A stretch of 10,865 nt of DNA, taken from IMG/VR virus record IMGVR_UViG_2660238548_000023. The stretch is one strand, 5' to 3'. Shown here in pieces: positions 8,173-9,209 of this stretch. This stretch comes from a virus. Lineage: Duplodnaviria; Heunggongvirae; Uroviricota; Caudoviricetes. Under the pieces are notes generated by a model, which had not been told where the DNA came from, did no database searches, and was given only the letters and a program-made list of their open reading frames with translations. Positions within the stretch are counted from its first letter, which is position 1; every line of letters starts with the position of its first letter. Both the position numbers and the translations under genes were made by a program.

Positions 8173-8279
8173 CGCTGTATGACCTGAAAGCGGAAGATGC
8201 AGAAAAAGCGGCATGTGATTTATTCGATATGACAATGGGGATTATCCAGGAGTACCGGAACAAGGAGCGCAGACCATGA
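8169..8279 (+). CDS. putative 36-aa micro-ORF coupled to ssb
   Basis: ATG 8169; its TGA stop (8277-8279) overlaps the ssb ATG (8276) as ATGA. No clear SD; speculative. Confidence 0.2.
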   Translation: MTLYDLKAEDAEKAACDLFDMTMGIIQEYRNKERRP

Positions 8280-8725
8280 CAGCACAAATTGCAGCTTACG
8301 GGCGGCTGGTGGACGACCCGCAGGTAAAACAGACCAGCAAGGGAACAGCGATGACGCTGGCGCGTATGGCGGTATCACTGCCATGCAGTCAGGCACAGGA
8401 CGGACAGGCGACGTTATGGCTATCAGTCCTGGCATTTGGTAAGCAGGCCGACGCGGTGGCGAGACATGAAAAAGGCGACCTTATCAGCGTGGCGGGTAAC
8501 ATGCAGATCAGCCAGTGGACCGGACAGAACGGAGAAACACGGCAGGGCTGGCAGGTTATCGCTGACAGCGTAATCAGTGCCCGTTCGGCGCGTCCTGGCG
8601 GGAAGCGGGGGCAACAGGGGAAGGCGACCGAAGCACAGGAAAGAGCAAAACGACAGACCGGACAGCAGGGAAATCAGCCACCAGCGGGAGGTGATGACCC
8701 GTTCTCTGACGATATTCCGTTCTGA
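8276..8725 (+). CDS. ssb: single-stranded DNA-binding protein (divergent SSB)
   Basis: 149-aa ORF. RBS aaggag at 8259-8264. Gly/Gln-rich linker and the acidic C-terminal tail ending DDPFSDDIPF, which is the SSB tail signature; OB-fold-like N-terminal region. Confidence 0.75.
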   Translation: MTAQIAAYGRLVDDPQVKQTSKGTAMTLARMAVSLPCSQAQDGQATLWLSVLAFGKQADAVARHEKGDLISVAGNMQISQWTGQNGETRQGWQVIADSVISARSARPGGKRGQQGKATEAQERAKRQTGQQGNQPPAGGDDPFSDDIPF

Positions 8726-8741
8726 ATGACAGAAGCACAAC

Positions 8742-9209
8742 ATGAACCAGCAGACCACACAACAGGACCAGACCACACGTAAACCATCACGGCGCATACC
8801 GTGGCAGCACATGACAAAGCGGCAGCGAAAAAACCGCAGGAGGATAAACCGACTGGCTGAGTACTGGCCTGAACTGTTTGGGGCAGAGAATATAAAACCC
8901 CTTAAGGCTGGCGTGATACACGATATGTTGCAGGACGCGAAGGCGCGGGAACTGGCGATTGGTCATGGCGTATTACGTGGCGCATTAACCTCACACCTTC
9001 ACACGACGCGATACCTTAAGGCGATTATTGCTGGTGGCCCACGGTACGACCTGAACGGGCAACCTTGCGGCGAAGTCACGGAGAAAGAGAAAGCAGCAGC
9101 CAGCGAACAACTGATGTGGAGGCTGGAGCAGATAAAACAGCAAAACATCCAGCGGCAGGATACGGGAGGTGGTGAGAGTGATAACAGACAGCGTGGCACA
9201 GAAACTTGA
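8742..9209 (+). CDS. ProQ/FinO-domain RNA-binding protein
   Basis: 155-aa ORF. The segment EYWPELFGAENIKPLKAGVIHDML...LRGALTSHLHTTRYLKAIIAGGPRYDLNGQPCGEVTEKE parallels the ProQ/FinO domain pattern (F...PLKIGI..DL...L...L..Y..S..YL.....G..R.DL.G.PCGE). Basic N-terminal extension. Confidence 0.75.
   Translation: MNQQTTQQDQTTRKPSRRIPWQHMTKRQRKNRRRINRLAEYWPELFGAENIKPLKAGVIHDMLQDAKARELAIGHGVLRGALTSHLHTTRYLKAIIAGGPRYDLNGQPCGEVTEKEKAAASEQLMWRLEQIKQQNIQRQDTGGGESDNRQRGTET

Follow-up and report, generated by a model that had tools for sequence, protein, structure and literature searches.

The 10,865-nucleotide viral DNA of IMG/VR record IMGVR_UViG_2660238548_000023 (hereafter the window, that is, the entire stretch that was analyzed) encodes, side by side on the plus strand, a single-stranded DNA-binding protein (SSB; positions 8276..8725, 149 aa) and a ProQ/FinO-domain protein (8742..9209, 155 aa; hereafter the FinO-domain protein). 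These two genes are independent, optional cassettes located at the end of the early/replication operon of an enterobacterial phage satellite. The explanation that we favor, with a probability of about one in two, is that such cassettes were fitted with separate tasks, the SSB serving the replication of the satellite and the FinO-domain protein acting as a dedicated RNA chaperone.

The pairing as such carries little information, both genes being already annotated and recurrent. A preceding sequence-only reading of the window had suggested that the pair forms an accessory nucleic-acid-handling module. The pair is neither rare nor unannotated: the RefSeq annotation (PGAP) names both genes, PHROGs contains families for both, and both are listed in papers on phage-inducible chromosomal islands (PICIs). 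The SSB, taken alone, is an ordinary replication accessory; the clade of the FinO-domain protein is uncharacterized and has a testable candidate RNA partner in this lineage, and most of the potential novelty lies in a neighboring hairpin array, not in the gene pair.

Two optional cassettes behind the satellite replicase

The gene order in the window is primase, iteron origin, SSB, FinO-domain gene and PerC-like gene, with the primase as the upstream gene of the operon that also holds the SSB and FinO-domain genes. The host element, a phage satellite with integrase, AlpA and primase genes, belongs to the Gram-negative PICI type and has P4-like features; the layout of int, alpA, primase and iteron origin bears out its earlier description as satellite-like, and the pair does lie near the replicon and a multi-hairpin locus, as had been pointed out (origin at 7796-8021 upstream, array at 9524-9926 downstream). 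With the stop codon of the SSB gene ending at 8725 and an ATG following at 8742, the spacer amounts to 16 nt, in agreement with the distance of 17 nt given in that description.

Among 5426 complete Escherichia coli genomes, SSB-like DNA was found in 1084, FinO-like DNA in 273 (~5%) and the SSB-FinO-PerC stretch (positions 7800-9500, at least 80% coverage) in 104; all 302 E. coli matches of the FinO-like gene are chromosomal and none is on a plasmid. In approximately 90% of the E. coli genomes that carry an SSB homolog, it follows the replicase without FinO, for example in loci L006 and L007, the former being a satellite with capsid and terS genes. FinO-bearing viral contigs from IMG/VR (n = 80) are redundant, so that counts obtained from them represent frequencies and not independent events. 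For 75 of them, upstream DNA was available: the SSB gene is located directly upstream of FinO in 31, mostly with a fixed 40-nt gap, and there is no adjacent SSB in 44. The most consistent partner of FinO is a PerC-like gene, which directly follows it in 55 of the 80 loci; in L012, FinO is found without PerC.

Individual loci display several combinations of these genes. The arrangement primase-FinO-PerC, without SSB, is present in E. coli (L002), Citrobacter (L008) and E. ruysiae (L004), and L003 contains SSB remnants upstream of FinO. In Salmonella (L009-L011) and in two E. coli islands (L100 and L101), a DUF927 replicase is followed by SSB-FinO-PerC. The position behind the replicase and origin is constant across the E. 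coli, Citrobacter, Salmonella and Serratia loci and the 80 viral contigs, and the order SSB-FinO-PerC persists at 50-59% protein identity and behind replicases of two unrelated types, namely D5-type primase and DUF927. Plasmid homologs of the FinO-domain gene also adjoin replication genes, being located 700 nt after RepA in L015 (42% identical) and ~1 kb from an SSB gene in the phage-plasmid L014. A scan of genome contigs for cross-species synteny yielded 2 loci, and protein look-ups and the viral contigs were used instead.

The synteny that the sequence-only reading had proposed to compare across related islands is preserved in part: the order SSB-FinO-PerC recurs in E. coli and Salmonella, and each gene is also found alone. 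FinO always follows the replicase and origin, usually with PerC after it, and the SSB gene is an independent, optional insert at the same place. Because FinO often occurs without SSB and SSB mostly without FinO, a joint functional module is not supported. Of the accessory nucleic-acid-handling module suggested earlier, the two protein families and the satellite context stand, and joint action is what the distribution does not support, 44 of 75 loci having no adjacent SSB.

In L007, the major capsid gene of a lambdoid prophage is interrupted by a satellite (positions 2279-15955) that encodes primase, SSB, capsid and decoration proteins, in agreement with the helper-embedded PICIs described previously (PMC10111431).

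The SSB and the FinO-domain protein

Both family assignments made in the sequence-only reading were confirmed by scores above the Pfam cutoffs and by matches to solved structures. The SSB matches PF00436 with an E-value of 2.3e-16 (60.2 bits, cutoff 26), TIGR00621 with 72.8 bits (cutoff 53.95), PHROG 44, 'single strand DNA binding protein' (3.9e-41), and solved SSBs in the PDB (down to 6e-12). It consists of an OB fold, a short basic linker rich in Gly and Gln, and an acidic tip, and its gene is preceded by a strong ribosome-binding site (AAGGAG, 7 nt upstream). The protein ends with GGDDPFSDDIPF (tail DDPFSDDIPF), so the canonical DDIPF tip reported earlier is indeed there, and so is the divergence, with ~27% identity to the host SSB in the OB fold. 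Compared by eye with the E. coli SSB, the protein appears to have equivalents of W54, F60 and W88, and Leu in place of H55. Satellite SSBs form a short clade (136-149 aa), in which the E. coli homologs compared share 78% identity and are 59% identical to the Salmonella one; the acidic tip is retained throughout the clade in varying form (DDIPF, DDISF, DDIPL and DDVPF). In published PICIs, SSB is placed in the replication category, next to mapped origins (PMC10111431). Judging from its position and this precedent, the SSB is probably a replication accessory for the adjacent origin: it would be an SSB that the satellite supplies for its own replication, covering the single strands that the satellite primase-helicase exposes at this origin and recruiting host SSB-partner proteins through its DDIPF tip.

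In the FinO-domain protein, the FinO domain (residues ~26-141) follows a basic N-terminal stretch (KRQRKNRRRINR), and the ends are disordered. The profile search envisaged in the sequence-only reading supports the assignment: the match to PF04352 has an E-value of 2e-24 and 86.1 bits against a cutoff of 27, and covers profile positions 4-107 of 109. Solved structures of the ProQ N-terminal domain, RocC, FinO and NMB1681 are matched with E-values from 5e-13 (the ProQ domain) to 4e-8. The AlphaFold2 model (pLDDT 80, >90 in the core) contains predicted helices at residues 26-41, 58-69, 75-86, 89-97 and 114-141 and strands at 100-102 and 108-111, in keeping with a FinO fold of helices plus a short beta-hairpin. 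A Foldseek search with this model retrieved RocC, FinO and NMB1681 with a probability of 1.0, E-values of ~1e-7 and target TM scores of ~0.8, and the only significant structural neighbors are these three and Legionella ProQ-like proteins. Tyr91 and Arg101 are invariant in 16 homologs and align with the Tyr of the 'RYL' motif and the Arg of the 'TRVD' motif of ProQ, presumably Tyr70 and Arg80 in ProQ numbering, the residues that contact the 3' end of the RNA. This Tyr and this Arg of ProQ are cited as essential for RNA binding (PMC7491321).

The protein scores below the cutoffs of the family-specific models for ProQ (NCBIfam NF003434, 56.5 bits against a cutoff of 127) and FinO (NF010317, 56.3 bits against a cutoff of 136), and its 155 aa contain no linker or Tudor-like C-terminal domain as in ProQ. 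Identity to FopA of pCol1B9 is 31% over 96 aa (E-value 3e-8, in a comparison of these two sequences), which does not place it in the FopA clade. By these sequence measures, the protein belongs to a distinct clade and is not an ortholog of ProQ, FinO or FopA. PHROGs contains three FinO-domain families of unknown function, and the literature searched holds no experimental study of a satellite FinO-domain protein. A PADLOC search with the SSB, FinO-domain and PerC proteins and neighboring open reading frames (ORFs) returned no defense or anti-defense match, and a role of this kind was dropped for all of these genes.

Candidate RNA partners and alternative explanations

All characterized relatives of the FinO-domain protein recognize a hairpin that carries a 3' tail and assist an antisense RNA in locating its target (PMC9977716). 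By analogy, the satellite protein would be produced only once the satellite operon is switched on; as with FinO, FopA and RocC, its ligand would be a hairpin ending in a 3' U-tail, and it would promote the pairing of a satellite antisense RNA with its target. In the lineage of the window, the most likely partner would be a multi-hairpin RNA of ~400 nt encoded directly downstream, and other lineages would use other RNAs.

This array (9524..9926, plus strand) consists of seven hairpins, the last of which, together with a T-run, forms a strong predicted intrinsic terminator (-29 kcal/mol according to a home-made terminator finder that is otherwise too permissive). The minimum free energy of the fold is -190 kcal/mol (z-score -8.55), five of the seven hairpins share the apex GGGC-AAYTGRA-GCCC (5 occurrences against 0.09 expected), and RNAalifold over 6 array variants predicts 136 pairs, 8 of them with compensatory changes. 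No Rfam family corresponds to the array RNA. Upstream, a promoter-like site, TTGCTC-16 nt-TATAAT (9492..9519, plus strand), is invariant in the window, L001, L018 and L019, with a conserved -10 box and a predicted transcription start at ~9526; it falls under the threshold of a consensus scan, and we infer the promoter. The array travels with SSB-FinO-PerC behind both replicases, the D5-type primase and DUF927. The idea that the hairpin loops form a CsrA sponge was rejected, the GGA motif being present in some of the loops only (the position varies between G and A).

Single units of the array are 89-94% identical, in antisense, to a 62-nt hairpin within an 8.4-kb LPD5/LPD38 gene (orf71 of VT2-Sakai); this hairpin is present in 183 phage records, nearly all from phages that convert their hosts to Shiga toxin (Stx) production, and in ~300 E. 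coli genomes. The matching segments are 9534-9595 and 9673-9734 of the window and 9001-9062 of L017, 6501-6562 of L098 and 6501-6562 of L099. Unit D corresponds to the VT2-Sakai type (by eye, unit D of L019 is even closer to it), and unit A to the PhiR5_2 type, in which the outer stem is different. That different units match different phage variants suggests Stx phages as helper or target of the satellite. The array RNA, if made, would present stem-loops complementary to one in the giant virion-protein mRNA of Stx-converting phages.

From these similarities and the analogy with FinO, one can construct a proposal, quite doubtful in our estimate, in which the FinO-domain protein and the array RNA form an antisense weapon or sensor of the satellite directed against its helper phage. 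Every unit of the array would copy, in antisense, some variant of a single stem-loop in the 8.4-kb virion-protein gene of Stx-converting phages, and the chaperone would catalyze the pairing of stem-loop with stem-loop, as FinO does with FinP and traJ, so that a phage satellite would carry a protein-assisted, multi-specific form of RNA interference. The suggestion of the sequence-only reading that the pair interferes with a helper phage may have one concrete lead here, namely the adjacent antisense array.

Two candidates for a general ligand of the FinO-domain protein were tried and rejected. The C4/CI and isrK immunity RNAs, of which the window itself has two copies each, were detected in none of the FinO-bearing loci L002-L004 (E-values up to 0.1) and in 1 of 12 FinO-bearing viral contigs. 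The hairpin array is not a general ligand either, because it is absent from the more distant FinO-bearing satellites. The regions 3' of FinO in L009 and L012 are unstructured (z-scores ~0).

Several observations weigh against a dedicated chaperone with a partner encoded nearby. Apart from its absence from distant satellites, the array is restricted to a close lineage (the window, L001, L018, L019, L100 and L101), and its linkage with FinO may be simple co-inheritance in one lineage; in L002 and L008, FinO-PerC is followed by two plain terminators and nothing else of the kind. The array may equally well work as DNA, for instance by imitating a site for phage packaging or protein binding. The start codon of the FinO-domain gene has no clear ribosome-binding site, and many homologs in databases are annotated with shorter N-termini. 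Finally, the SSB and FinO are each found without the other, with nothing to show that they cooperate.

Among the alternatives, the one that fares best, unlikely as we consider it, is that the FinO-domain protein regulates copy number or replication by aiding an antisense RNA that acts against translation of the satellite replicase, as in the FopA/Inc/repZ system. The FinO gene always comes directly after the replicase and origin, the 42%-identical plasmid homolog lies 700 nt after RepA, FopA with Inc RNA and repZ on IncI plasmids is a precedent (PMC7491321, PMC9977716), and Vibrio satellite-plasmids carry a 'ProQ/FinO-like regulator' along with repA and parA (PMC13230959). The window also contains a 40-codon leader ORF (5842-5964, plus strand) that overlaps the ATG of the primase gene (ATGA), and over the start of this leader a minus-strand hairpin with a T6 run (5875-5856), a candidate antisense control element for the replicase. 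However, the occurrence of FinO-PerC or SSB-FinO-PerC behind unrelated replicases fits poorly with an antisense RNA dedicated to a single replicase leader, the candidate hairpin is a weak match to the consensus in a window without surplus of terminator-like sites (14 found against 11.3 expected in shuffled sequence), and the identity to FopA is just 31% over 96 aa.

Less probable than both this and the antisense weapon is that the two genes are cargo that acts on the host, FinO and PerC rewiring host or virulence RNA regulons, with the FinO-domain protein competing with or extending the chromosomal ProQ, and the SSB modulating repair or the SOS response. The tight coupling of FinO to PerC-family genes, in overlapping or 4-nt-overlapping frames, is compatible with this possibility, as are the enrichment of the element in Shiga-toxin-producing E. 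coli (STEC) strains, the ability of PerC-like PICI genes to alter expression of the enterocyte effacement locus, LEE (PMC11773190, PMC6092414), and the capture of host RNAs by plasmid and phage FinO-domain proteins (PMC9977716). In opposition to it, no match to defense or anti-defense models was found, and the genes are part of the operon that follows the replicase. Silence of this operon in the integrated satellite is to be expected, given its control by C4/CI-type immunity RNAs here and, in model PICIs, by AlpA (PMC6092414).

The least probable alternative, a single nucleic-acid-handling module in which the two proteins would act jointly, e.g., on single-stranded DNA and RNA intermediates at the origin, could draw on the short fixed spacer, which measures 16 nt here and 40 nt in most viral-contig loci where an SSB adjoins FinO, on the order kept between E. 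coli and Salmonella at 50-59% identity, on the decayed SSB upstream of FinO in L003, which suggests ancestral pairing, and on the phage-plasmid with both genes within 1 kb, but is countered by the many FinO loci without adjacent SSB, by the ~1084 E. coli genomes with this SSB type against 104 with SSB-FinO-PerC, by the FinO-less, SSB-bearing satellites that are complete elements with capsid and terS, and by the lack of any domain or sequence feature connecting the two proteins.

The satellite and its relation to known systems

The satellite that carries the two cassettes occurs in STEC, and has the layout of Gram-negative PICIs: int, alpA, primase and iteron origin, all genes in one orientation, and no phage structural or lysis genes. 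The genes of this mobile element start with a tyrosine integrase (1-1254) and an AlpA-type regulator (2299-2502), followed by Rha and AntA antirepressor genes in the same direction, ahead of a non-coding zone of immunity RNAs. This zone holds two isrK-like leaders (4292-4369 and 4848-4926, plus strand; isrK 50 bits) and two C4/CI-type antisense RNAs (4471-4558 and 4952-5039, plus strand; 72.9 and 70.3 bits, gathering score 45), so that a P4-type immunity cassette, an isrK-like leader followed by a C4/CI-type antisense RNA, is duplicated. A long ORF (3281-4804) represents an AntA N-terminus continuing into the zone, and small ORFs are located between it and the primase; the remaining ORFs of the window are hypothetical or of the Rha, AntA, YlcI, Icd or PerC types. 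The Rfam 'int-alpA RNA' is present just after the integrase in two FinO-bearing islands without C4/isrK (L002, 1899-1966; L004, 3307-3375) and undetected in the window.

The satellite replicase (5961..7784, plus strand) is a P4-alpha-type primase/helicase with the Pfam domains D5_N, DUF5906 and Pox_D5; the P4-family model TIGR01613 matches it with an E-value of 3.7e-27 and 95 bits, below the curated cutoff of 108.7, and so does not assign it to that family. The origin that follows (7796..8021) contains ~11 iterons (GGTGAACA/TGTTCACC) in both orientations around AT-rich DNA, with repeat families and inverted repeats. Iterons of the TGTTCACC type are also a feature of P4. The iteron layout agrees with the Gram-negative PICI origin reported previously (PMC6092414).

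Between the origin and the SSB gene, positions 8133..8279 (plus strand) encode the last 48 codons of an ORF of 127-139 aa, which is full-length upstream of SSB in L100 and L101 (tblastn with the proteins of these islands, 94-100% identity over 48 aa, frame 2); its stop codon overlaps the SSB ATG (ATGA), and it carries no RefSeq annotation. This is a gene remnant and a case of local decay. Downstream of the pair, the gene for a PerC-family small regulator (9178..9471, plus strand, RefSeq coordinates; Pfam PerC 2.6e-28) starts with GTG behind a GGGAGG ribosome-binding site and shares the last 32 nt of the FinO-domain gene. It is the first of three consecutive PerC-family paralogs (9178-9471, 10394-10696 and ~10700-10865, plus strand), the third of which runs past the end of the window, and it has a weak match to the ANR anti-activator family (E-value 6e-4). 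In L100 (6785-7177) and L101 (7173-7565), a Q-family antiterminator is encoded in islands with a DUF927 replicase and the SSB-FinO-PerC-array block, a possible means of acting on the late transcription of a lambdoid or Stx helper.

Copies identical to positions 7800-9500 are present in E. coli O145:H28 RM12581, O157:H7 strains and bovine isolates, and the RefSeq (PGAP) names on this identical 1.7-kb stretch are 'single-stranded DNA-binding protein | ProQ/FINO family protein | PerC family transcriptional regulator'. The RM12581 island is annotated as ~12 kb long, between yicC and dinD, a length that falls in the range of ~10-15 kb of Gram-negative PICIs. From Rha through PerC, the window and this island are 99.6-100% identical (100% in the right half), and their integrase and AlpA regions are 30-35% identical (window 1-2502 against L001 6586-9112; integrase 30%); the integrase of the window is 89% identical to those of the Salmonella islands L009 and L010. 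A full-length identical copy of the window was found in none of the complete E. coli genomes, the best covering 93% at 98.8% identity. As judged by these comparisons, the window is a mosaic element: no genome matches it identically over its full length, and its integrase and its right half differ widely in their identity to the RM12581 island (30% and 100%).

Plasmids (FinO, FopA) and chromosomes (ProQ, RocC) are the settings in which FinO-domain chaperones have been investigated, in each case as a dedicated protein that enables an antisense RNA to function. Phage satellites are a third setting, represented in ~5% of complete E. coli genomes and in Salmonella, Citrobacter and Serratia. For Enterobacter PICIs, one report counts a ProQ/FinO-like chaperone and PerC among the accessory genes, by annotation only (PMC13612085), and another mentions a ProQ/FinO-like regulator on Vibrio satellite-plasmids (PMC13230959). 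If the satellite protein has its own RNA partner, an RNA-chaperone layer would be added to the conflict between satellites and helpers, with the greatest relevance in STEC, where the output of Stx phages sets toxin release.

Compared with Gram-negative PICIs (EcCICFT073, EcCIEDL933, EcCIMP1 and the helper-embedded ones), the satellite shows the same succession of int, alpA, a Bro/Rha/AntA zone with C4 and isrK, Icd, primase, iteron origin and accessory genes, in one orientation, with PerC-like genes, which are common in PICIs, and an SSB replication gene (PMC6092414, PMC10111431, PMC11773190); C4 and isrK RNAs are likewise found in the Bro zones of PICIs (PMC10111431). In contrast, the model PICIs have no FinO-domain gene, and the window has no capsid, terS or rpp genes. 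With satellite phage P4 it shares the alpha-type primase, a C4/CI-type immunity RNA with isrK/seqA-like leaders and an Icd-like gene, whereas psu, delta and sid are all missing from the annotation of the RM12581 island, and P4 has neither SSB nor FinO-domain gene. The SSB resembles those of plasmid leading regions and phages (PHROG 44) in combining an OB fold with an acidic tip and in being a mobile-element SSB additional to that of the host, but it forms a distinct short clade and adjoins a satellite origin, not a conjugative leading region.

For the FinO-domain protein, ProQ of E. coli and Salmonella and RocC of Legionella are the best domain matches by sequence and structure, including the conserved Tyr and Arg; unlike ProQ, the 155-aa satellite protein has no linker and Tudor-like C-terminal domain and is island-borne, in ~5% of E. 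coli genomes. FopA (YafB) of the IncI plasmid pCol1B9 is similarly a small stand-alone FinO-domain protein of a mobile element; it too carries a basic N-terminal extension and no ProQ C-terminal domain, and its gene lies close to the replicon. It differs from the satellite protein, which is 31% identical to it over 96 aa, is encoded directly after a primase and origin in a frame that overlaps a PerC gene, and for which no Inc-like RNA was identified. FinO of F-like plasmids, which acts on FinP and traJ mRNA, has a long N-terminal helix and a conjugation context that the satellite protein does not share. The fold is the same (1dvo, Foldseek E-value 2e-6), and the pairing of complementary stem-loops in the FinO/FinP/traJ system fits an adjacent array that is complementary to a stem-loop of a phage mRNA.

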